Positions 1,690-47,739 are shown, counted from the stretch's first letter. The stretch: DNA of 64,000 bases from Minisyncoccota bacterium (GCA_035559235.1 DATMBM010000016.1:28431-92430), one strand, 5' to 3'. The notes: a model not told the origin generated them from the sequence alone. Translations and numbers: made by a program.

Positions 1690-2166
1690 TCAGATATTGA
1701 ACTCGTCGAGGATGTCGGCCATCGTATGCCGCGATTGCAACCCGACATTAGCCCAATTCCAGCCGTGCTGAAATCTTCGATGCGATCGGTCAGGGCGGCC
1801 GTACTCGCTAATCCGTATGCGGATGTCCCCGACGGTTCGCATATTTGCCCAGGGCAGTCCCTCGATAAGTCGTGAGAACACCCCGTGTCGCTTTTGCGTT
1901 TTTTCGTAGTTTGGGTGACGCTCCTTAAATTTCGCGATCAGTTCTGCGACCGAGGTAGTGTCGGGAATGGTTTCTGCATCGGGCGCTTCACCATCGCCTC
2001 CAACGAGCGTCCGGAGACGATCCCGCACGCATCCAGCGTCCGCAATGATGCGATTCATCGTTCTGATCATGTCTTGGATACTCTCTTGCTTCTTGGGCAT
2101 CGAGCTCCTCCAGCGCAAGTGCTCCTGCAAACCTATATCATTCGCGCCCGCTTCGCAAACATTCAT
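1690..2166 (-). CDS. hypothetical protein (158 aa from the internal Met MNVCEAG...); last gene of the hydrolase cassette
   Basis: The long ORF 1690..2409 overlaps the upstream membrane-protein gene. The internal start at 2166 overlaps the upstream stop by a few bases. No family recognised. Confidence 0.4.
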   Translation of the reverse strand: MNVCEAGANDIGLQEHLRWRSSMPKKQESIQDMIRTMNRIIADAGCVRDRLRTLVGGDGEAPDAETIPDTTSVAELIAKFKERHPNYEKTQKRHGVFSRLIEGLPWANMRTVGDIRIRISEYGRPDRSHRRFQHGWNWANVGLQSRHTMADILDEFNI

Positions 2167-2555
2167 GAAATCCGCCGCATGAGTGAGGGTGCCGATTTTT
2201 TGAGGATATTGTTGACGAGGGTGCCTAGGAACCAGGCGATGACGCCGAGAATCACCGGAAAATAAATGTGGGTAGCATCGAAAACAATTTCGAAAAGAAT
2301 GGCAGGACAAAGCGCGACGATATTCCACAACCAAATATTTTTCCCGCCAACGGAATGCATTAAGAAAGTGACCAGGAAGATTAATGTAATGGGTAGACCT
2401 AAGATCCATTCGATCGTTCCTGGCGCCCCAATAAAATTACCGCCTGTAGCGTGGGGGAATAGAGATACGTACAGAGCCCCGAGAAGTTGTGCAAATAGGT
2501 ACGTGAGAGCGTACGCAGACGCAATAACCAATATCCTTAGTGTGGCGATACTCAT
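2163..2555 (-). CDS. hypothetical polytopic membrane protein (130 aa, ~4 TM)
   Basis: Hydrophobic throughout (LRILVIASAYALTYLFAQLLGALYV..., ...VILGVIAWFLGTLV). It is tightly packed (10 bp) downstream of the giant hydrolase gene. Confidence 0.55.
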   Translation of the reverse strand: MSIATLRILVIASAYALTYLFAQLLGALYVSLFPHATGGNFIGAPGTIEWILGLPITLIFLVTFLMHSVGGKNIWLWNIVALCPAILFEIVFDATHIYFPVILGVIAWFLGTLVNNILKKSAPSLMRRIS

Positions 2556-2565
2556 AGTCGCAGAG

Positions 2566-5388
2566 CTAATTACTAATTAACCATAAAACATCCTCCTTTA
2601 ATATCTGATACGCTTGCTCACTTAAGCCTTTTCCTCGTTGCTTATTCAACTCGATAATCACTGCACCAGCAAGAATCTTATCCACTACTTTCTGCAACTT
2701 CTCCCCCTTTGGCTTACCATCGGTCTTCTTTTCGATAACCCGTGAGATCTTTACGGCTGCGGTGAATTTCTTAACGATGTTGTCTCGTACCTTTTTCGTC
2801 ATCCAGCCGAGCGAATATGCTCTATCGATATCTGAAAGCGTACTTTCGACGGTCGCCACCACACGAAAGTGCTTGACCGACGTTGTTGCATTGCCCACAT
2901 TGTCCGTTGACGATGCGACAAGCGTATACTCTCCCAGCTTTTTGAAGAACAGATCGATCGTACCTTGATTGGGTACTGTCGTCGTTCCTAAGCGCGCCAC
3001 AAGCTCATAAACCCCGGATTCGTCGCTCGCCGAAATATCGATCGGCAGCTGGTCGGAGCGCGGATAGTCTTTTGTCTCGGGTGAATCAATCGAAATTATG
3101 GGTGGATCAGTATCCACGGGCATCACTTCCAGCTTCTCTGGAGTTGCGTTATTGATTGAAACCTGTAACTCAGTGATAAGTCCAGGTGCCGTATTTCCGG
3201 TAAACGAGGCCTCAATCATTTCATCTTGGCTGATATAGTTCGTCTCGACGGTGTAGGAGCCGCTATCGGTCCCCTGCGTGATAACTTTGTATTCGCCATC
3301 GAGAGGGTTGAGGATGGTGATAAATTCCGTATTGGTGTTAAAGCCAGTATAAAACGCGTCCGGTATTTGATTGATTGCCTGGCCGTTTTCTTTACCGATT
3401 TTTTTGCCGTCAGGAGCGACCACGAGCAGGTCGGCGGGTGAAAGTATTTTGACGTTCAATAATTTAGCTGTAAGCGAATCGTGTTCGTGCGAGAGGAATC
3501 CGGCGACTTGTCCCGTTAAGACGAAATAGACGTCGCCTTGTGCCTCAGTAGGTAGCGCGTTATGCGAAAATGCAGTTGTGAGCAGATTTAAATCAACAAA
3601 TGATGCACTCGGCAACGGAACTGTGTTGTCACCCTCGCCGCGCACCAAACCATGGTCTCCGATAAAAGAATAATAATTCTCTGGATAACCATGTGGCCAC
3701 AACGGAGCGTATTCGCTTGAATCAGTTGCTAGTATCCCAACAATTGTCTGCCTCTGCGAAGTATTACCAATGACACTGTGGATACTAACCCCAACGTTTA
3801 TCAAGTCTTCTATGCGGTCATTTAAATTTTCTAGGAAGGGATTGGTCGGGTAATTCATCGGATAATTTCTAAGCTGATCAGAGTCGAAAATGTATGCGTA
3901 GACAGGAAGAAGCTCCTGCACAGAGGGAATCGGTCCAAATTGAATATACGAGAAAAGGTTGTCGTAACCATTTTCGTACGCTTCGTGTTCCAAGATGAGT
4001 TCGAGAATCTTTCCCAAGACATCTCCCGTTACAGCAAATTCCCCTCCCTCCCACATCAAGTACGCTTTTGGAGCTCCAAGATGAGGCGTGCCGAGGAAGA
4101 TGAGCTGGTCAACATCATCTTCGTATGCGTCGGATTGGATATACTGCCGCGCGACGAGCCCGCCCATCGAATGGGCAACCAGGTCAACCTTGTTGCATTC
4201 ACAGATTTCCTTTACCTGGTCAATCTTCTCTTTGAGCAGGACTGCGGTCTCGACATTCGATTTGCGCCAATTGTAAGGAAACGTGAACAAATCAACTCCA
4301 GGCGTATAGTGGTTTATATCCAGTGTCGCGATAAGGTCGTCGTACGTATGCAAAATCGGGTCGATCACCCATTCTCCATCGCTATTCCGCTCCGAGCCAA
4401 GAATGCCCGGAATGATAATGACGGGGTCAGGTGCGGAACGTTCCGCCTCAATTGTCGGAGGAAAGGGGGTCGTCCGCACGGTCGACGTGTTTCCCACGAC
4501 GGTGCCATGGAAGGACACAAACGCGGCATCGGCCGGGATCGTGCCGTTGCACGCAGTGCATTGAATCGGTACGTCGCTTTCGTCATCCCAGAGTGTCCAT
4601 TCGGTAGGAGACGTCATGCGGAATGAATAGTATCGGATGTGCGGCGTAATGGCGGTTGCAGTGACTAGCGTGTTGTAGTTGGGGACGACAAATCCACACG
4701 TCTCGTCAGGAGTTATGACGGCAGAGCGGAAGAGCCGACCGTCGTTGAACGGGACCTTGAGACGCAGATGGACGCGGAGCAGTCCGTCAACGTATTCCGC
4801 GCGTTCGTAGGAATCGAAGAAATAACCGTCTGCTGCGATTGAAGGGCAGGATTCGTGTTTTTCCACCTGATTCTCTAACTGCGGCGGTTCGCCGCCATGC
4901 TCAAACATTCGCACGGTGCGCGATTCGAATCGGGAACCAAACCCTCCCGAATACTGTCCCCTAAATTTGATGCGCGTGTATGAAGGATACTTCGGTATTT
5001 CCAGGCTTGTTACCAGCGCTTCATTTTGATCGTCCCACACTTCAAGTTGGGTCGGCGAGGCGAGGCGAATACTCCAGTGGGTGACTCCAGAAGGCAGCTG
5101 GAAGGGATCTGACGTTGGTACGCTATTCACCGCGAGCGTGCATTCGTCATCATATGGGAGCCACTGAATTCGAAAAGGACCTCCCCCGGATGCAAAAATC
5201 GGATCGTTTCGGAAATGGTAGATTAAATTTCCGTCGGGCGAATACTCCACACTCTCGTAGTTGGTGAAGAAAGTTCCTTCTGCAGTAAGCGCAGACAAGC
5301 CGCAGGGCTCCGTGAGCGCACTCGTGGTTGGCGCAAGGCTGAACGATAGCGCGCAAATCACCAATACGACACTTTTCCGAAATCTCAT
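2566..5388 (-). CDS. giant secreted alpha/beta-hydrolase (lipase/esterase-like) with flanking beta-rich, Ig-like regions (940 aa)
   Basis: N-terminal signal peptide (MRFRKSVVLVICALSFSLAPTTSA). GxSxG nucleophile elbow in a DLVAHSMGGLVARQYIQS context, typical of class-2 lipase / PGAP1-like / LCAT-like hydrolases. Long beta-rich flanks. AT-richer C-terminal helical tail. Confidence 0.8.
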   Translation of the reverse strand: MRFRKSVVLVICALSFSLAPTTSALTEPCGLSALTAEGTFFTNYESVEYSPDGNLIYHFRNDPIFASGGGPFRIQWLPYDDECTLAVNSVPTSDPFQLPSGVTHWSIRLASPTQLEVWDDQNEALVTSLEIPKYPSYTRIKFRGQYSGGFGSRFESRTVRMFEHGGEPPQLENQVEKHESCPSIAADGYFFDSYERAEYVDGLLRVHLRLKVPFNDGRLFRSAVITPDETCGFVVPNYNTLVTATAITPHIRYYSFRMTSPTEWTLWDDESDVPIQCTACNGTIPADAAFVSFHGTVVGNTSTVRTTPFPPTIEAERSAPDPVIIIPGILGSERNSDGEWVIDPILHTYDDLIATLDINHYTPGVDLFTFPYNWRKSNVETAVLLKEKIDQVKEICECNKVDLVAHSMGGLVARQYIQSDAYEDDVDQLIFLGTPHLGAPKAYLMWEGGEFAVTGDVLGKILELILEHEAYENGYDNLFSYIQFGPIPSVQELLPVYAYIFDSDQLRNYPMNYPTNPFLENLNDRIEDLINVGVSIHSVIGNTSQRQTIVGILATDSSEYAPLWPHGYPENYYSFIGDHGLVRGEGDNTVPLPSASFVDLNLLTTAFSHNALPTEAQGDVYFVLTGQVAGFLSHEHDSLTAKLLNVKILSPADLLVVAPDGKKIGKENGQAINQIPDAFYTGFNTNTEFITILNPLDGEYKVITQGTDSGSYTVETNYISQDEMIEASFTGNTAPGLITELQVSINNATPEKLEVMPVDTDPPIISIDSPETKDYPRSDQLPIDISASDESGVYELVARLGTTTVPNQGTIDLFFKKLGEYTLVASSTDNVGNATTSVKHFRVVATVESTLSDIDRAYSLGWMTKKVRDNIVKKFTAAVKISRVIEKKTDGKPKGEKLQKVVDKILAGAVIIELNKQRGKGLSEQAYQILKEDVLWLISN

Positions 5389-5462
5389 GCGGCAAGTATC
5401 TACTCAACCTTGTGAAGGACAAGTCGGGAGTGCACGAAAATGTGCATAACTGACAAATCAGA

Positions 5463-5502
5463 ATGTATCACTTTCTATACCATGGTATAGAAAGTGATAC
5501 AT
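5463..5502. promoter_or_regulatory. 40-bp perfect palindrome (atgtatcactttctatacc|atggtatagaaagtgatacat) in the promoter region of the hydrolase gene; candidate operator
   Basis: Read directly: both 20-nt arms are exact reverse complements, centred on CCATGG. It sits 75 bp upstream of the hydrolase start (5388) and 30 bp downstream of the regulator stop. A 20/24-matching half-site recurs at 6124-6147, overlapping the regulator start codon. Confidence 0.55.
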
Positions 5503-5531
5503 GGGTTCACATTCCACGATTCCTATCGCTC

Positions 5532-6128
5532 TCAAATACTGAAGCGCTTGCGTAACACTCGATCGCTGCCAAGTGAGTCCGCAACAACGAGGCGCAGCTC
5601 CTCGTCAGAAAGCGAAAAAGCGTCTCGTAGCACGCCAACCTGTTCAGAACAATCGAATGGATATATCCAGACGCTTTTCTGTAACATGATCGCCCCGAGG
5701 CGTCGTATCAAACTCCTGAACGCGTTCCGTTTCGCGGTCTCGCCGGTCGGGATATCAAATAAAATAATCCGCCACTTGCCGTCCCAAACGTCAGGCCGAA
5801 CCATCGGTCGGAGAAGGATGCGCCGCGCAACCAAGCTTCGGGCACGCGCTCGTCCGTGTGACGTCATCTCGATTCGCATTCCGCGCTTTGTCGATCGTTT
5901 TTTTACATACCCTTTGCGAAGTAAATATTGGAACGACTGCTGTACCTTTCTCTTGCGATCTCGATCCTCCGCTTTGAACACGAAACCAACCCCGGCCAGT
6001 GCAATAAAAAGAGTCGGCGCAAGAGTTAAAGCAGCGGCAACGCCTCCTGCAACAAACAGTGCCTCTAGTATTCCATGTGGCGTGTCTTCAAAAAGCATCG
6101 GCTCGGGATGTTTAGTTTTTTGAACCAT
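5532..6128 (-). CDS. membrane-anchored putative transcriptional regulator: N-terminal TM helix, winged-HTH-like basic region, C-terminal Cas2-fold / PaaX-C-like domain
   Basis: TM segment GILEALFVAGGVAAALTLAPTLFIALAGVGFVF, then a basic wHTH-like stretch. The C-terminal WDGKWRIILFDIPTGETAKRNAFRSLIRRLGAIMLQKSVWIYP has the beta-alpha-beta pattern of Cas2 and the PaaX C-terminal domain. The start codon lies inside a CCATGG half-operator. Confidence 0.55.
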   Translation of the reverse strand: MVQKTKHPEPMLFEDTPHGILEALFVAGGVAAALTLAPTLFIALAGVGFVFKAEDRDRKRKVQQSFQYLLRKGYVKKRSTKRGMRIEMTSHGRARARSLVARRILLRPMVRPDVWDGKWRIILFDIPTGETAKRNAFRSLIRRLGAIMLQKSVWIYPFDCSEQVGVLRDAFSLSDEELRLVVADSLGSDRVLRKRFSI

Positions 6129-6147
6129 GGTATAGATAATAATACAT
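6124..6147. promoter_or_regulatory. half-site (accatggtatagataataatacat) matching the right arm of the 40-bp palindrome; candidate autoregulatory operator over the regulator start codon
   Basis: 20 of 24 positions match the palindrome arm accatggtatagaaagtgatacat. It overlaps the ATG of the regulator gene (6126-6128 on the minus strand). Confidence 0.4.
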
Positions 6148-6166
6148 GAAGAAAACGGTGTAATAC

Positions 6167-6226
6167 AAAAACTCCCCGTACGGGGAGTTTTTGGTAACGC
6201 ACAAAGCCCCCTTTCGGGGGCTTTGT
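6167..6226 (-). terminator. two tandem hairpins between the PG-binding-protein gene and the regulator gene
   Basis: Hairpin 1 at 6167-6192 is aaaaa-ctcccc-gta-cggggag-ttttt, with A/T runs on both sides, so it could terminate in either direction. Hairpin 2 at 6200-6226 is cacaaagcccc-ctttc-ggggctttgtg. Both lie just downstream of the stop of the 6275..8308 gene. Confidence 0.6.
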
Positions 6227-6274
6227 GCTGCTTACGTAGAGCCTAGGTGCTACGAAGCATGTCGATCAAGAACG

Positions 6275-20890: not shown

Positions 20891-22924
20891 CTATTTCACA
20901 ACTGTCGCGTTTGCGGGCGTGAATCCTGGATCGGTGTTGATGTTCGTCGTGACGTCGGTGGCGCTGCGCGAGACCGTCTCCCCCGTCGCTTCGTCGATGC
21001 CGGTAAGCTGAATTGCGCGAATGAGGACCGGCTGCTGGCCAATTTGCGATGTGGAGGGCGTGATCGCGATATTGATGCCGAGCTGGCGCACCTGTATGCC
21101 CTCGGTCCCGGTGCCCGGCTCAATCGTCCCCAACCGCCACGTGAATGTGCCGTCGTTTTGGTTGAACGAGATGTCCGCGCTTGCGGGCGCAAAGATACCG
21201 GTCCAACGCACGTACGGCGGCAAAGCCGCCTTCACGACGGCATTCGTGATGCGGTTCGTGGTGTTGGTGACGCTCAGAACGATGCCGTAGGTCGTTTCTT
21301 CGCCGGCTTTCGGAGGGATAGGGCCGCTTGAGGAGAGTGGGTTCGAATAGTAGAGGCCCTGCGCAATGAGCTGCAGGTCGCTTGCGACACGGATCGTCTG
21401 CGAAGCGGTGGACTGCAGGGTCTCGGGCACATCGCGCTCCGCGATGCGCCGCCCGGCCGCCTGGACGCTTATCGTGACTTTCGGATCGCGCAGGCCGCGC
21501 AGTTCGTCGTTTGACGGCACTGAGAATGAAAAACTGACGGTCCCGCGCGCGCCCGGTGCGAGCGATGCGAGGGAACCATTCGTCGTCGACTTGTCCCACA
21601 AGACGACACGGTCGCTCGAGCGATAGAAGCCGTCGTTCGTGCGCACCGTCGTGCCGTCGATTTCAATGCCGCTCAACTGCGCAACGATGACCGCGTCGAT
21701 AATCGGCGTCGAGAGGTTGTTCTGCCACTGCACTGCGACGTTCACCGTCTCTCCCGGACCTGCAATCGCGCCGCTCGCCCCCTGGTCCTTGTTCACGTCG
21801 ATGGTGAGGCCGAGGAATGGATTCGAGACGGTGACGTGATGCGCGTAATCGGCAAGAACGGCATCAATTGCCGTTTTTTCCTCCGAGGTGCGCGTGCCGG
21901 CCGTAAAGCGAATGACGCGCTCATCTCCGCTTTCGCCCAGGACGCTGCCGCGCACCAAGACGCTCTTCTGCTGCCCCGGCGCAAGGTCGCCGAGCGCCCA
22001 CAAGTTCCGCGATCCCGCAACGGGCTGCGGGTCGGCGTGTGAAAGCGTAAAGCCGAACGGGAAATTGATATTGAGGAGCACATCCTTTACCGGCGCCTCC
22101 GCATTCGACGCGACAGTCGCCGTAAATTCAACCGGCTGCCCTGAAATTGTTTCGCTATTGCCTTCAATGGAGAGCGAGATCGGTGACGAGGAGAACATGA
22201 TCTGGTAGTCGGTCGAGGAGACGAAAATGGCGCTCGAGCCCGCAAGGCGATATTCGAGTTCAACCTTGACGGTCGCGCGCTCGCCTTCCTGCCCGGCAAA
22301 AACCGCCGAAATCGTGCCGCGCCGCTGTCCACCCGGCTCAATCGTGCCGAGCGATTCGCGCAAGTCGGGCAAGCTCGTCGTAAGATCATTGACCGAACGC
22401 GTACCCTTCGGAAATGTGACGACCAGGTCGGCAAGTTCAAGCGGCACGCGGTTGCGGTTTACGATTGCGATCTGCAATTTCGTGGGCGTGCCGCTTTGCA
22501 CCTGCAGCGGCCCTGAGACGACGATGTCGATATTGCCGGGAGAGGCGGGAACGCTCCCGCCGCCGAGAAAAAAGTAATACGCCAGAAAACCTCCCGCCCC
22601 CACTCCGAAGGCAACCCCGGCATAGATGAGCCACTGCACGAGCACGCGCATCACGTGCAACTTCTTTGGTGCGGCAATCGTGCCGGTAAACGGGCTGTCG
22701 TCGGGGTGCTGCCAGTCCTCGCCGATTGGCGGCGTCCCAGCCTCAAGTTCATGGCGCGGCTTCTCCTTGATGTTCGGTTCCAGCGCGCGGCTGTACATCG
22801 CGCGCCGCAGACGTTCTATCTTTTCCTTCTCATGGTCGCTCTCCACCTGCCCGTCTCGACTCGCGTCACGTGATGCGGGCGGCTCGACGCCCTCAAAAGG
22901 AACATGAGGTTTTTCCTCAGGCAT
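20891..22924 (-). CDS. large membrane-anchored surface protein with repeated Ig-like / DUF11-type beta domains (677 aa)
   Basis: Charged cytoplasmic N-terminus, one TM helix (VLVQWLIYAGVAFGVGAGGFLAYYFFL), then ~550 aa of beta-rich repeats. Confidence 0.65.
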   Translation of the reverse strand: MPEEKPHVPFEGVEPPASRDASRDGQVESDHEKEKIERLRRAMYSRALEPNIKEKPRHELEAGTPPIGEDWQHPDDSPFTGTIAAPKKLHVMRVLVQWLIYAGVAFGVGAGGFLAYYFFLGGGSVPASPGNIDIVVSGPLQVQSGTPTKLQIAIVNRNRVPLELADLVVTFPKGTRSVNDLTTSLPDLRESLGTIEPGGQRRGTISAVFAGQEGERATVKVELEYRLAGSSAIFVSSTDYQIMFSSSPISLSIEGNSETISGQPVEFTATVASNAEAPVKDVLLNINFPFGFTLSHADPQPVAGSRNLWALGDLAPGQQKSVLVRGSVLGESGDERVIRFTAGTRTSEEKTAIDAVLADYAHHVTVSNPFLGLTIDVNKDQGASGAIAGPGETVNVAVQWQNNLSTPIIDAVIVAQLSGIEIDGTTVRTNDGFYRSSDRVVLWDKSTTNGSLASLAPGARGTVSFSFSVPSNDELRGLRDPKVTISVQAAGRRIAERDVPETLQSTASQTIRVASDLQLIAQGLYYSNPLSSSGPIPPKAGEETTYGIVLSVTNTTNRITNAVVKAALPPYVRWTGIFAPASADISFNQNDGTFTWRLGTIEPGTGTEGIQVRQLGINIAITPSTSQIGQQPVLIRAIQLTGIDEATGETVSRSATDVTTNINTDPGFTPANATVVK

Positions 22925-22949
22925 TCGCGCATTTTACCACAGCCGTGAA

Positions 22950-28153: not shown

Positions 28154-28765
28154 TTACACCAAACGCTCACCAAGCCGGTCAAGCGGTTCATGGAAATCCT
28201 TGATAACCTTCCCATTTCGGACAACGCTCCAGTCGCCAAAATTGTTACGCTTCAAGCGACTGTACACATCCTGTTCTCCCTGCAGCTCCGCAATGTACAT
28301 GTTCATCGTATATCCGTGACCGACAAACAAAATCTTCCTATTGTGATTTTCGGCATCGACAATCCCCACCTTTGTGGTGAACCGCTCTCGAGCGCTGGCC
28401 GCTGATTCCCACTTTCCGTCGTTGGCCTTAACCTCAGGATGCGTCAAGGCTTCTTTCGCAGTCGCTTCGTAAGTGTCGTGATCCATGAAATCGCCTTTGT
28501 CCCTATCCATTTCCGCGATTTCGCTGGAATACATGACTTCGAATTTTCTATTGGCTTCGCGCAATGTATCCAAAAGCGGCGCAATCGTTTGTTGCGCCTT
28601 CTTCTCAGTTGAAATGATGAAGATATCAACGTCGTGGAAAAATGTATTCTGCGCTATATCCTGCGCCTGCCGTGCGCCTTCCGTAGTCAAATCCCATTCG
28701 CTGATCGGCGTATCTTTATCAACTTTTGTTTCCCCATGCCGCAGGAAAATCAATGTGTTGTTCAT
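28154..28765 (-). CDS. histidine phosphatase family protein (phosphoglycerate-mutase-like), stand-alone
   Basis: LIFLRHGETKVD... (RHG catalytic motif) and ...ILFVGHGYTMNMY (second His). The start at MNNTLIFL overlaps the argS stop by 4 bp. Confidence 0.78.
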   Translation of the reverse strand: MNNTLIFLRHGETKVDKDTPISEWDLTTEGARQAQDIAQNTFFHDVDIFIISTEKKAQQTIAPLLDTLREANRKFEVMYSSEIAEMDRDKGDFMDHDTYEATAKEALTHPEVKANDGKWESAASARERFTTKVGIVDAENHNRKILFVGHGYTMNMYIAELQGEQDVYSRLKRNNFGDWSVVRNGKVIKDFHEPLDRLGERLV

Positions 28766-30441
28766 ACTTTCTCCGGCGCGGGAATGCCAAGGAGCCACAA
28801 GCCATTCTTGAGCGTGAGGCGCGTGATGTCAGCCACCGCGACTTTGTGCGCAGCCGCCGGAGTACCATCGAGGATCTGTTCTTTCGCGTACCAGCTGTTG
28901 AATGCGGACGCTATCATGATCAGATAATTAGCAACAATATGCGGCTCGAGCTGTTCCTGCGCCCGCACGACGGTCTCATAGAATCGGTAGACAAGGCGTG
29001 TTAGATCACTCGGCGGAGCGCCCGCGTCGAATTTCCCCTTCACTTTCGCCTCCTTCGCCTTTTCCATGATCGCGTGACAGCGTGCGTGCGTGTACTGGAG
29101 ATACGGCCCGGAGTCACCTTCGATCGAGAGCGCCTGCTCGCGGTTAAACACAATATCTTTTCCCATCGCGCCTTTCAGGATTTGGAATTTAATCGCCGCG
29201 ACGGCGATGTCTTGTGCGAGCTTTTCCTTATCTCGCGCGCGGCTCTCCGCCGCGCGCGCCTTTGCCACGTCGGCCAAATCCTCAATCAACGATTCTCCGG
29301 TGACGACATTGCCCGTGCGCGAGGACATCTTTCCTTCCTGTAGGCGCATCATCCCGTGCGAGACATGTCTCGTTTTTGCGGCGAGCTCCGGAAAGACTTC
29401 GCTCATCGCCGCAAGGAGCACCTTGAAATACTCGTTAATCTCATTGCCGGTGACGATCACCGACGTGTCGTACTTGAATGTGTCATACTTCATCTTCGAG
29501 AGCCCCAATTCTTTCGCCTCATACGTCGGCAGGCCTTCTGAATTCAGGAAGACGCGGGTGTGCAACCCTTTCTTTTCGCCGTCGTAGACGATGGCACCTT
29601 CGCTTTCCTTGAAAACGCCGTCTGCGACGTGTTTCTCAACCACCTGTTTGCCAAACGGCCCGGTCTCACTCTCGAAAAAATAGTAATCAAATTTCGTGCC
29701 GAGAATGTCGTACAGCTCCTCGAAATGCGCAAGTGACGTCTTTCGCCCTTCGTCGTACAGCTTGGTGATCGCCTTGTCGGAACGCTCGTACACCTTTTTG
29801 TTGATCGCGGTAATTTCTTCTTTTACCGGCGAACCATCGACATCCGCGGCCGCGCCTGCTGCATACGCGCGTCCCAACGCTTTCACATCCTTCGCACTTT
29901 CTCCGCTCTGCAGCAGCCCCCAAATTGCGCGCGCAACATGACGGCCAACATCGCCCTGGTAATTAGCGCGCTTCACGGTGGCGCCGGAAAACGCGAACAG
30001 GCGCGAAATGCTCTCGCCAATCGCGTTCGTTACGAGGTGGCCGATGTGGAATTCCTTAAATGGATTCGGGTCGGTGTATTCCACGATCACTTTCTTTCCC
30101 TTTAGACCGACGCCGCTGCCCCATTTCTCGCCATGCTTCCGTCCGATTTCCAGCATCTCATACAGATATTCCGGTGAGAGCGTGAAATTGATGAATCCTG
30201 GACCGGCGACTTCGACGCTCGCAACACCTTCGGCGTCGCGAACGGCCGCAGCGAGCTGTTCCGCAAGCTCGCGCGGGTTTTTCCCGAGCTGTTTTGCGTA
30301 AACGAGTGCGACATTTGAAGCGTAATCGCCGTGAGAAAGGTCGGCCGTATGTTCGAGCACAATGTCTTCGGGGACGACGGAACTACCCGCCCCGGCGAGT
30401 GCCTGTGCGAGTCGTTCACGAATTGAGGAAACGGGGTCCAT
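28762..30441 (-). CDS. argS: arginyl-tRNA synthetase
   Basis: N-terminal Arg_tRNA_synt_N-like domain, HIGH-equivalent region (PNPFKEFHIGHL), C-terminal DALR anticodon-binding domain. Confidence 0.93.
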   Translation of the reverse strand: MDPVSSIRERLAQALAGAGSSVVPEDIVLEHTADLSHGDYASNVALVYAKQLGKNPRELAEQLAAAVRDAEGVASVEVAGPGFINFTLSPEYLYEMLEIGRKHGEKWGSGVGLKGKKVIVEYTDPNPFKEFHIGHLVTNAIGESISRLFAFSGATVKRANYQGDVGRHVARAIWGLLQSGESAKDVKALGRAYAAGAAADVDGSPVKEEITAINKKVYERSDKAITKLYDEGRKTSLAHFEELYDILGTKFDYYFFESETGPFGKQVVEKHVADGVFKESEGAIVYDGEKKGLHTRVFLNSEGLPTYEAKELGLSKMKYDTFKYDTSVIVTGNEINEYFKVLLAAMSEVFPELAAKTRHVSHGMMRLQEGKMSSRTGNVVTGESLIEDLADVAKARAAESRARDKEKLAQDIAVAAIKFQILKGAMGKDIVFNREQALSIEGDSGPYLQYTHARCHAIMEKAKEAKVKGKFDAGAPPSDLTRLVYRFYETVVRAQEQLEPHIVANYLIMIASAFNSWYAKEQILDGTPAAAHKVAVADITRLTLKNGLWLLGIPAPEKV

Positions 30442-30459
30442 GCTGGAATTGTAGTAGGT

Positions 30460-31089
30460 CTAGCGGAGCGCGTCCTCTACCTTCTTGGCGATAGCTTCGG
30501 GAGACTCGCCCTCGCGGCACGCGACCGTGCGCCACTCTTTTCTTTTCGCAAGGTACGCGTACTCAGCCGCGACCGCTTTTTGGTATTTCGCATCTTGTTC
30601 ATTCGTATCGAGCTTGCCGCTACGCTCTTTGTGCAAACGTTTCCGCGAAAGCGAGACGGGGATAGAAAGATAGATGACACGATCCGGGCGCGGAAGCTTG
30701 AAGGAACCATATTCCAAATCTTCGAAAAATTTACGAAAGGCCTGGCGCTTCTTCGACTGGCAGAGCGCCGCATTGAATGCGAGATTACTCGTCACATATC
30801 GATCGCAGAGCACGATTCCCTTCTTGCGGGCAGCCAGCAACTTGTCCCGCATTAGCACCTGGTCTATCGCGTACGGGAACGAGCGGTAGTACGCGTTGAT
30901 GTTCCGAAAATCCCCGTGCTTGCCGCGGAGCGCATCTCGAATGAATCCTCCGATGGCGCTCGAATAGTTGGGAAAACTGAACACGGTCACGGTATGACCC
31001 TTCGCTCGAAGCCGTTTGGTGAGGAGCCGTATCTGCGTCGCTTTCCCTGAGCCGTCGAGTCCCTCGATAACGAAAAATCGCCCTTTCAT
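30460..31089 (-). CDS. tmk: thymidylate kinase
   Basis: MKGRFFVIEGLDGSGKATQ P-loop and DRY-like motif (LCDRYVTS). Confidence 0.92.
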   Translation of the reverse strand: MKGRFFVIEGLDGSGKATQIRLLTKRLRAKGHTVTVFSFPNYSSAIGGFIRDALRGKHGDFRNINAYYRSFPYAIDQVLMRDKLLAARKKGIVLCDRYVTSNLAFNAALCQSKKRQAFRKFFEDLEYGSFKLPRPDRVIYLSIPVSLSRKRLHKERSGKLDTNEQDAKYQKAVAAEYAYLAKRKEWRTVACREGESPEAIAKKVEDALR

Positions 31090-31205
31090 GGGGCGATTAT
31101 ACTGGCAAGCGAGGAGAAAGCGAAAGGCGTTCTCTCATTCTCAAAGCACCGCTTGCATACCCAGCGGACTGTCGTTCATTTCGCGAAGCAGACCAAGTAC
31201 CACGA

Positions 31206-46671: not shown

Positions 46672-46689
46672 TCGGATACAATAGAGTGC

Positions 46690-47739
46690 ATGCTGAAGCA
46701 GATCCTGGTTGGCATCTTCGCGTTTTCGCTCATCGCTCTTATTGCGCTGTGGGTAATCACCGGAGGCCCGCGGCAACTTGTCACTGACACCACCGAATCC
46801 ATCCGCGCTGCAGTCACGACCGACAAGGACGTCGGCTTCCAACTGCCGTGGCAGCCCGCACAAATTTTCCCGACGATCGATATTACCGACCTGTACGATT
46901 TCTCCGCCGAAGAAGAACGGGCGTATTCGGCATATGCCGACTACCCGGAGTATCCCGACTATCCCGATTTCGCGCCGACTCATGCGCAGCAGCTTGCCGA
47001 ATTGGAATCCGAATACGACCGGCTACGCGCTGAAGCGAGTCGCCAACGGACGTTCGGCGCACCGTCGCCGTACGCCGGAAAAGTGGCAATCCAATCAGAT
47101 ATTTCTGGCGTTCGCGCGAGCGATCCGCGCGAAGAATACCTACAGATCGTCGCGAATTATGCAAACAGCGAAACGATCGACATCAGCGGTTGGATTTTGG
47201 AAAGTGCGCTTTCGGGCACGCGTATCCTGATCCCGCCGGCCGCCTCTCCCTTTATTGCGAATTCGTCGAACAGCGTAGGGTCAGTGCTACTCGAGCCGGG
47301 CGGGCTCGCACTCGTCACGTCGGCCGTCTCCCCCGTCGGAGTCTCGTTCCGCGAAAACATGTGCACCGGCTACCTCGGCCAATTTCAGGATTTCGGTCTG
47401 CCGCTTTCAGAAGAGTGCCCGTCTCCAGCACAGGTACTGCCGCTCACCGAAGAAAACCTCCGTCTCTATGGCGACGCGTGCTTCGACGCGATCATGCATC
47501 TCCCGGTGTGCCGCTTCCCGCAAAACCTACCCTCCTCCGTCTCCTCGGCATGCCGCGCATACCTCACGGACGCGCTTTCGTATAACGGCTGCGTGAAACA
47601 AAACCGATTCCGCTCTGCGTTCAACAAGAATATGTGGCGCATCTACCTCGGATCGCCAAAGGAACTCTGGCGCAATTCGCATGACGCGGTGCGGCTTTTG
47701 GATGCACAAGGACGGACCGTCAGCGTGTACGTGTATTAA
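46690..47739 (+). CDS. membrane-anchored protein with a lamin-tail-domain (LTD)-like region
   Basis: N-terminal TM anchor. YPEYPDYPD repeat. …ETIDISGWILESALSGTRILIP… resembles the LTD beta-sandwich motif. Confidence 0.6.
   Translation: MLKQILVGIFAFSLIALIALWVITGGPRQLVTDTTESIRAAVTTDKDVGFQLPWQPAQIFPTIDITDLYDFSAEEERAYSAYADYPEYPDYPDFAPTHAQQLAELESEYDRLRAEASRQRTFGAPSPYAGKVAIQSDISGVRASDPREEYLQIVANYANSETIDISGWILESALSGTRILIPPAASPFIANSSNSVGSVLLEPGGLALVTSAVSPVGVSFRENMCTGYLGQFQDFGLPLSEECPSPAQVLPLTEENLRLYGDACFDAIMHLPVCRFPQNLPSSVSSACRAYLTDALSYNGCVKQNRFRSAFNKNMWRIYLGSPKELWRNSHDAVRLLDAQGRTVSVYVY

Follow-up and report, generated by a model that had tools for sequence, protein, structure and literature searches.

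Introduction

The PaaX box of Escherichia coli consists of two inverted hexamers, TGATTC(N27)GAATCA, and PaaX competes with RNA polymerase at promoters (review PMC9493321). Here we describe a shorter protein of this type together with two long dyads that flank its gene, in a 64,000-nucleotide stretch of Minisyncoccota bacterium DNA (GCA_035559235.1 DATMBM010000016.1:28431-92430; referred to below as the window, with positions counted from its first nucleotide). The element of interest is a perfect 40-bp palindrome at 5463-5502, located between the gene for a 198-residue regulator and a gene for a secreted hydrolase, and it is probably one of two paired operators of a PaaX-like symmetric oligomer that represses its own gene, the second site either cooperating with the first or providing insulation. 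The protein type and the operator geometry are already known from PaaX; new within the searchable literature are the truncated family found across the Candidate Phyla Radiation (CPR), the twin dyads around the gene, and the placement of the start codon on a dyad axis. No published description of this architecture was found in that literature, subscription journals being outside the search.

Comparison with described systems

The regulator is predicted to have, as in PaaX, a winged helix N-terminal to its Cas2-like PaaX_M domain, and its top matches among solved structures are E. coli PaaX (8a39; E 6e-6, 188-193 columns), Rv0674 (3kfw), and 3l09, with 8a39 and 3l09 matched over ~190 columns. 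Both operators have two 6-bp inverted boxes, TGATTC(N27)GAATCA for PaaX versus ATGTAT-N28-ATACAT here, a likeness of geometry only. PaaX proteins are ~305-316 residues long, however, compared with 198 here, and the regulator carries a hydrophobic N-terminal stretch. Its operator adds a strongly conserved core, ATACCATGGTAT, to the outer boxes, and two sites flank the regulator's own gene, with the start codon at a dyad centre. PaaX, a three-domain repressor known from E. coli and Pseudomonas, controls the phenylacetate (paa) genes, with phenylacetyl-CoA as its inducer. Because the C-terminal helical domain of PaaX is missing, the TIGR02277 PaaX equivalog model scores 21.5 bits versus a cut-off of 264.55, and no paa genes are seen among the neighbours examined (here PG_binding, a lipase-like hydrolase, and FtsK; in relatives tkt, pfkB, and Wzy_C), the regulator is not a true PaaX.

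Looping autoregulators with two operators include lambda CI (OL/OR) and, with auxiliary operators, DeoR, GalR, and LacI. The locus described here resembles them in having two related operators hundreds of base pairs apart, one of them over a promoter, which is suggestive of cooperative binding, with looping when protein molecules are few. It differs in that the only gene between the operators is the regulator's own, with the second operator just past its stop codon, and that the sites are ~40 bp long rather than the 14-20 bp of operators in the classic looping systems. The best profile match of the winged helix is to AspA of the Sulfolobus plasmid pNOB8 (5k5q, 5k5o, 4rs8; E 0.004), with a domain fold match at a template modelling score of ~0.6-0.7 normalized to AspA, and AspA binds a palindrome beside its own gene. 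This match is weak and limited to one domain, AspA has no Cas2-like domain, and the locus here is chromosomal with no adjacent partition ATPase or ParB gene.

Residues 119-154 of the regulator match Cas2, with a ferredoxin-like fold and the aspartate after strand 1 retained; the TIGR01573 Cas2 model scores 25.2 bits against a cut-off of 24.5 over these residues, the PADLOC Cas2 models match too, and some homologues are automatically annotated as Cas2. The match spans only 36 residues, though, with a predicted winged helix fused to it, and the Pfam assignment is PaaX_M rather than Cas2. Cas2 is a stand-alone protein of ~90-110 residues encoded beside cas1 and a CRISPR array, whereas the regulator has 198 residues, the 64-kb window lacks a CRISPR array, and cas genes are absent from the neighbours examined. 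A different kind of likeness is offered by RAYT/IS200-like Y1 genes with repetitive extragenic palindromic (REP) sequences and by non-autonomous IS200/IS605 elements, elements in which one small gene likewise lies between two palindromes and which in two related loci (L067 and L113) occupy slots of the regulator module. Unlike those elements, the regulator has no Y1_Tnp/HUH match, its palindromes are AT-rich, undispersed, and share a conserved core, its start codon lies at a dyad centre, and its inheritance is mostly vertical.

Two dyads flank the regulator gene

The regulator gene and its two dyads are arranged as follows.

5463-5502, no strand assigned: downstream dyad site, a perfect 40-bp palindrome 3′ of the regulator stop codon (position weight matrix, PWM, score 44.9)
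5532-6128, minus strand: regulator gene, 198 residues, encoding a hydrophobic N-terminal segment, a predicted winged helix, and a PaaX_M domain of Cas2 type (PF20803, 65 bits)
6108-6147, no strand assigned: upstream dyad site, a degenerate 40-bp dyad (PWM score 46.8), one arm of which includes a -10-like hexamer and the other the first ~7 codons of the gene

The downstream site reads ATGTATCACTTTCTATACCA followed directly by TGGTATAGAAAGTGATACAT, a perfect 20+20 inverted repeat with zero spacer whose axis is the CCATGG at 5480-5485, and which has outer boxes ATGTAT and ATACAT 28 bp apart and the core ATACCATGGTAT. The chance expectation for a 20+20 palindrome is ~64000 x 4^-20, or ~6e-8 per 64-kb window, and the palindrome 20-mer allowing up to 3 mismatches is matched three times, versus 0.00 expected from shuffles of the window. 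Thirteen palindromes with arms of at least 10 are present in the window (shuffles yield 0-1), and that at 5463-5502 is the longest of these and the sole AT-rich one, with 30% G+C; the remaining 12 have 43-92% G+C and are mostly GC-rich and terminator-like. The flanking regulator and hydrolase genes are both on the minus strand, with the regulator stop codon (5534-5532) 29 nt from one edge of the palindrome and the hydrolase ATG (5388) 74 nt from the other. The dyad-symmetry profile over 27 sites has one clear axis, which fits one symmetric complex covering ~40 bp; an arrangement of two side-by-side sub-palindromes of 16-18 bp, as for two dimers, was rejected, symmetry being 0.74 at the centre and only 0.40 and 0.34 at +/-10.

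The upstream site (6108-6147) matches the perfect palindrome at 30 of 40 positions over its entire length. Its arm at 6128-6147 matches a palindrome arm at 17/20 positions, and the other arm, at 13/20 and with the outer ATGT retained, lies within the first codons of the regulator gene. At its centre is a CCATGG (6125-6130) containing the regulator ATG (6128-6126, minus strand), and the centres of the two dyads that flank the gene are 645 bp apart. A first-pass annotation of the window had described an exact 20+20 inverted repeat centred on CCATGG, far above chance and lying between the regulator stop and the hydrolase start, and in each of these respects the measurements above agree with it. 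It had also placed the regulator ATG within a CCATGG, correctly, and reported a 20/24 match to one arm over that ATG (6124-6147); the match is real, at 21/24 rather than 20/24. Its description of the upstream copy as a half-site gives way here to that of a complete if degenerate dyad of 40 bp with the ATG at its centre, because the whole of 6108-6147 matches the palindrome.

The regulator gene start

Two further features bear on expression of the regulator gene.

6136-6164, minus strand: promoter-like element of the regulator gene, ATTACA-17-TATTAT, with the -10 hexamer at 6141-6136
6166-6228, minus strand: two GC-rich hairpins (6166-6193 and 6199-6228), the terminators of the upstream PG_binding gene

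The upstream dyad covers both the -10-like TATTAT and the ATG of the regulator's own gene. The hexamer stops 7 nt before the A of the ATG, and there is no Shine-Dalgarno sequence. In many genes of the window the ATG is preceded at 6-7 nt by a TAnnnT hexamer, and a Shine-Dalgarno sequence is likewise lacking (for example TATAAT-CGCCCC-ATG, TAAAAT-GCGCGA-ATG, and TACAAT-TCCAGC-ATG), the pattern preceding genes such as 20894-22936(-), 28765-30462(-), 30463-31137(-), 46672-47739(+), and 2566-5388(-), and first genes in this genome seem as a rule to have leaderless mRNAs. From the -10/ATG geometry and the same pattern before other genes in the window, we infer that the regulator mRNA is leaderless and starts at the dyad centre, in which case the upstream dyad would cover about -20 to +20 of the regulator promoter. 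The possibility that the arm motif is merely a -10 hexamer was discarded, as the same conserved positions are present in all four arm classes, non-promoter arms included; only the upstream-left arm adds the A that gives a good TATnAT.

The terminators of the PG_binding gene end only 18 nt from the upstream dyad, and the PG_binding terminator is kept in the related loci L001, L113, and L114. The first of the two hairpins, CAAAAACTCCCCGTACGGGGAGTTTTTG, is symmetric with A and T runs on its flanks and could work in both directions. A 209-residue open reading frame (ORF) with a GTG start at 5494-6123(+) runs antisense to the regulator; it is unsupported, probably a side effect of opposite-strand composition, and was rejected as a gene, there being nothing in its favour.

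Conservation of the two-site bracket

We retrieved 32 genome loci encoding relatives of the regulator (designated by L and a number). Every locus at 50-72% protein identity has at the gene start an imperfect dyad of ~40 bp with (T)ACCATGG(T) in the middle, and both dyads are present in all 20 of the non-redundant CCATGG-type loci. The ATG of the dyad is the first codon of the full-length ORF in 18 of these 20, and the downstream dyad is 16-49 nt past the stop codon, also in 18; the two exceptions to the downstream spacing (L013 and L118) are artefacts of a short reading frame starting at the dyad ATG. The downstream dyad is present too at loci whose next gene, pfkB, encodes a sugar kinase and is convergent, and since it is found in all 20 loci, those with convergent neighbours included, the downstream site is a part of the regulator module and not of the hydrolase gene. 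By this comparison, the dyad-regulator-dyad arrangement recurs across many uncultivated CPR bacteria. In L118 (5802-6421) the regulator gene is broken into pieces of 82 and 115 residues, probably reflecting a frameshift or a pseudogene, and both flanking dyads are intact.

The arm consensus nTGTnTnATnTTTnATACCA is common to the upstream-left, upstream-right (coding), downstream-left, and downstream-right classes. Within a locus, arms are identical at 9.17 of 16 outer positions, versus 6.72 +/- 0.17 when permuted (0/5000 permutations reach the observed value), and arms are about as similar across sites (8.98) as within the same site (9.0). Such similarity within and across sites is as predicted if one protein reads four half-sites; a hairpin needs no such likeness. 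The centres of paired dyads are 613-668 bp apart, with no common phase, and helical phasing of the two sites was therefore rejected.

Distant members of the family (22-45% identity) also have locus-specific palindromes on both sides of the gene, in groups that include Doudnabacteria, Beckwithbacteria, Wolfebacteria, and Microgenomates; among these distant loci the palindromes are not clear-cut in L023, L026, and L059, and only partial in L029 and L031. The cores of distant members are different (CAGCTG, CGATCG, GCCATGGC, and TAGCGGTCGCTA), and their recognition helices differ likewise. Other perfect palindromes are found in L028 (4553-4590, 38 bp), L029 (2590-2631, 42 bp), L030 (3360-3407, 48 bp), L032 (4229-4270, 42 bp), and L034 (~1838-1881, 44 bp), such that the perfection of the palindrome in the window is recurrent and not unique.

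The dyads are confined to regulator genes

A PWM was built from 27 sites, and a scan of 288 kb, including the whole window and the loci used for the PWM, found regulator-flanking sites only. In an out-of-sample scan of 546 kb, composed of 88 loci obtained via other genes (pfkB and the hydrolase), there are 24 matches of at least 20 bits, 23 of them beside a regulator gene, with two sites per complete regulator gene and one at the truncated L034 locus. The sole other match has 21.2 bits and a CCAAGG core. No convincing solo dyad was found with the PWM in the 72 of these loci that lack a regulator ORF, and no further copies of the dyad are present elsewhere in the 64-kb window. Patterns written in IUPAC code with at least 14 specified bases recover at most 7 of the 27 known sites, and the metagenome scan was made with the flanking pfkB gene.

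The regulator protein

The PaaX_M domain (PF20803) occupies residues 114-187 of the regulator with 65 bits against a cut-off of 24, and is found in all 80 of the homologues listed. The Pfam scan found nothing else in the protein, including no PaaX N-terminal model, PaaX_C, transposase, or HUH family. An AlphaFold2 model built with 57 sequences (predicted local distance difference test, pLDDT, 81.6) has an a1-b1-a2-a3-wing arrangement followed by a ferredoxin-like domain, and the fold matches at the level of single domains are to AspA/F-93 and to Cas2. The aspartate that follows strand 1 of the Cas2-like domain (D125) is invariant, and no histidine is present in residues 113-198.

At 50% identity the family comprises 4,608 clusters at E <=1e-3 and 2,310 at E <=1e-10, and most members have 180-210 residues. 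Membership of a defence system was considered and rejected, the only matches being partial ones to Cas2 and weak ones to the LmuC model. Searches of phage, plasmid, and virus collections gave no relatives at the protein or DNA level, and an origin in such elements was likewise rejected.

A model for regulation

We propose that the protein forms a symmetric oligomer, in the simplest case a dimer like that of PaaX, which recognizes the ~40-bp dyad through the outer TGT...ACA boxes, ~28 bp apart, and the ATACCATGGTAT core. Protein bound at the upstream operator would exclude RNA polymerase, and the gene would thereby be negatively autoregulated. The downstream operator, situated 3′ of this gene, is presumably the stronger site, because it is a perfect palindrome, and it could cooperate with the upstream operator by way of a loop across ~645 bp; alternatively, it may act as a bound roadblock that insulates the gene from transcription coming in or going out. 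The downstream dyad could also have a secondary effect on the hydrolase gene, which starts ~95 bp further downstream.

Several observations weigh against this model. The whole case rests on sequence and its comparison. All of the sites found adjoin the regulator gene itself, which makes this a pure self-regulator without evident output, unless the sites act on neighbouring genes or the protein has some other job. The module is patchily present and absent at fixed intergenic slots. Several downstream sites are perfect over 38-48 bp (those of the window, L028, L029, L030, L032, and L034), a perfection that exceeds the needs of a dimer touching outer boxes and a core. Lastly, the 29 uncharged residues at the N-terminus of the regulator score as membrane-like, with a Kyte-Doolittle value of 2.1 in a 19-residue window (at least 1.6 in 44 of 57 family members), and AlphaFold2 places them at low confidence in helices 1-2 of the winged helix, the pLDDT of residues 30-49 being only ~46-51. 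A membrane-like N-terminus and low model confidence in this region raise the prospect that the DNA-binding domain may be incomplete or tethered to the membrane.

The hydrolase gene

The gene on the other side of the palindrome and its promoter-like element are as follows.

2566-5388, minus strand: secreted alpha/beta hydrolase of LCAT/PGAP1 type, 940 residues, a possible target of the regulator
5395-5422, minus strand: promoter-like element of the hydrolase gene, TTGTCC (5422-5417)-16-GATACT (5400-5395)-6-ATG at 5388

The promoter-like element is ~35-40 nt beyond the palindrome, and the dyad centre is at about -94.5. It is kept in L001 (TTGTCC-16-GATAGT-6-ATG) and also in L114, which has neither regulator nor palindrome. 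The first-pass annotation had put the palindrome in the hydrolase promoter, and this needs revision, as there is no overlap with the core promoter and the promoter is conserved even where the palindrome is lacking. Its suggestion that the pair of sites fits an adjacent PaaX-like protein and autoregulation is supported, the palindrome behaving like a site for that protein and a related dyad covering the regulator's own start; of the two roles that it gave to the pair, autoregulation is favoured, and control of the hydrolase is possible.

The box GTTATGCACA (5441-5450, minus strand) is situated between the palindrome and the -35-like hexamer of the hydrolase gene, is kept in L001 and in the regulator-free L114, has the variant TAATGCACA in L004, and may belong to the hydrolase promoter as an independent regulatory element. 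Right after the hydrolase gene there is an ORF of ~125-131 residues with no Pfam match, at 2163-2555(-) in the window and in L114, L115, L116, L118, L119, and L120; L113 has a 78-residue ORF at this position, and in L117 the regulator comes directly after the hydrolase. The post-hydrolase ORFs have only weak likeness to each other, with 10/21 identities at the C-terminus.

Alternative explanations

It is possible, though we doubt it, that the palindrome is chiefly an operator through which the regulator controls the hydrolase, a role compatible with autoregulation from paired sites. The palindrome does lie in the regulator-hydrolase intergenic region with no terminator between the genes, and in both the window and L001 the genes are co-directional in the order PG_binding, regulator, hydrolase. 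In L115 the two genes are divergent and the upstream dyad of the regulator is ~89 nt before the hydrolase ATG; in L117 and L118 the hydrolase is upstream of the regulator, which precedes a Wzy_C gene; and in L002 a different alpha/beta hydrolase is downstream of the regulator. L117 and L118 were chosen for sharing a contig with a regulator match, however, and are thus a biased sample, and when six hydrolase homologues were selected purely by rank, just one (L115) had the regulator beside it. The dyad centre at about -94.5 is 35 nt beyond the -35-like hexamer of a promoter that L114 also has, the spacing to the ATG varies (it is 16 nt shorter in L001), and the downstream site is no less present at loci with a convergent next gene; the most numerous regulator loci are those between transketolase (tkt) and the convergent PfkB kinase gene. 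The association of the regulator with envelope genes is suggestive, and its control of the hydrolase is possible because the two genes recur as neighbours in varied arrangements. That the palindrome instead forms a nucleic-acid hairpin, as a terminator or as a stabilizing 3′ end of the regulator mRNA, is very unlikely. In the window itself the RNA fold has -24.3 kcal/mol versus -3.6 +/- 1.8 in shuffles and the DNA fold -15.8 kcal/mol (z -8.2), a consensus scan calls the site terminator-like with 18 pairs and the tail TCTGATTTGT, and there is no other terminator between the regulator and the hydrolase, and the hairpin possibly contributes to termination locally. Most counterparts, by contrast, have only -2 to -10 kcal/mol, near shuffled controls; mismatches have no sense-strand excess of G:U pairs (34 sense versus 49 antisense); the stem has 30% G+C, unlike the GC-rich terminators of this genome; no conserved U-tract follows the sites; and L004, L013, and L118 have a separate GC-rich terminator-like hairpin just past the downstream site. 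What is conserved is the specific bases common to both sites and not pairing alone. No family reaches threshold in an Rfam scan, and with the variable energies, the lack of G:U strand bias, and the stem composition, a conserved RNA hairpin or intrinsic terminator was rejected.

We give almost no weight to the palindrome being a chance occurrence or a remnant of a REP or a miniature inverted-repeat transposable element (MITE). The site is palindromic and intergenic, and IS200-like genes with REP-like palindromes exist in related genomes, but the chance expectation is ~6e-8 per window, the placement relative to one gene family is kept across many lineages, and the REP-like palindromes seen in relatives are GC-rich and unrelated in sequence. 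Dispersed copies, which the earlier annotation had named as the sign of such an origin, are absent, with only the two sites in 64 kb and, over the 546 kb from related loci, none apart from regulator genes; membership of a REP, REPIN, or MITE family was rejected on this basis, and this explanation is largely refuted. A more elaborate explanation, and one we consider unlikely, is that the palindromes mark the ends of a cassette subject to gain, loss, or exchange as a whole, with the protein or a trans-acting enzyme (for example a Y1 transposase) acting on hairpin or cruciform ends and regulation being secondary. In ~10 loci the module occupies 660-720 bp exactly between the convergent stop codons of pfkB and tkt, with palindromes at its very ends, and in 22 related loci without it these genes abut or overlap with no remnant of a dyad; other pfkB/tkt slots hold unrelated inserts. 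Yet in gene-dense genomes any gene with its regulatory sites will resemble a sharply bounded insert, and no consistent target-site duplication is seen at the module junctions (a TCT in the window compared with L114 is within chance). Loci bearing the module are scattered over at least four clades of the PfkB tree, interspersed with empty loci, and L114 has the PG_binding gene, the terminator, and the hydrolase but neither regulator nor site; against this, regulator identity correlates with that of the flanking housekeeping genes (r 0.67 and 0.81), as expected if inheritance is mostly vertical. One outlier is L011, whose regulator is divergent (51-54% identical to those of L005, L012, and L072) despite close flanking genes (85-88% for pfkB and 80-87% for tkt), which suggests replacement by a paralogue at the same slot; its genome has at least four family members (L011, L013, L014, and L020). 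Some genomes have 2-4 paralogues, but these are ~50-55% identical and thus not recent copies. Slots that hold the regulator module in relatives, pfkB/tkt and PG_binding/hydrolase, are filled in L067 and L113 by IS200-like Y1_Tnp genes (L067:1741-2545 and L113:2100-2990; PF01797, 31.6 and 31.8 bits) flanked by GC-rich REP-like palindromes such as TACCGAGAACCTACCTCGGTA. Derivation of the module from IS200/IS605 was nonetheless rejected, as the regulator has no Y1_Tnp match and the palindromes of L067 and L113 are GC-rich and unrelated. The perfection of several sites over 38-48 bp and the retention of D125 in the Cas2-like domain would suit a cassette, whereas the lack of histidine in residues 113-198, of any transposase or HUH match in Pfam, and of phage, plasmid, or viral relatives would not. 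Moreover, two features tie the sites to expression of the regulator gene, namely the start codon at the dyad centre and a site core that changes in step with the protein subfamily. Somewhat less likely still is that the operator-gene-operator unit is a self-contained exchangeable CPR cassette, whose protein recognizes and perhaps synapses or processes its end palindromes, or tethers DNA to the membrane via its N-terminus.

Significance

CPR bacteria are uncultivated, and almost nothing is known of their gene regulation. The 198-residue protein and its 40-bp site form a concrete candidate pair that is testable in vitro, and they represent a family of 2,310 clusters (E <=1e-10) whose proteins annotation pipelines now call 'Cas2' or 'PaaX'. 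Were the module a mobile cassette, it would be a new type of element, a selfish or semi-autonomous unit that persists and moves between slots also used by IS200-like elements. As paired operators of an autorepressor, the reading we prefer, the dyads have an unusual and strongly conserved design, with twin long dyads around the regulator's own gene, the first seven codons doubling as an operator arm, and the start codon, the likely transcription start, exactly on the dyad axis. If the second site acts by looping or as a roadblock, the arrangement would be a compact insulation device that fits these very gene-dense genomes.

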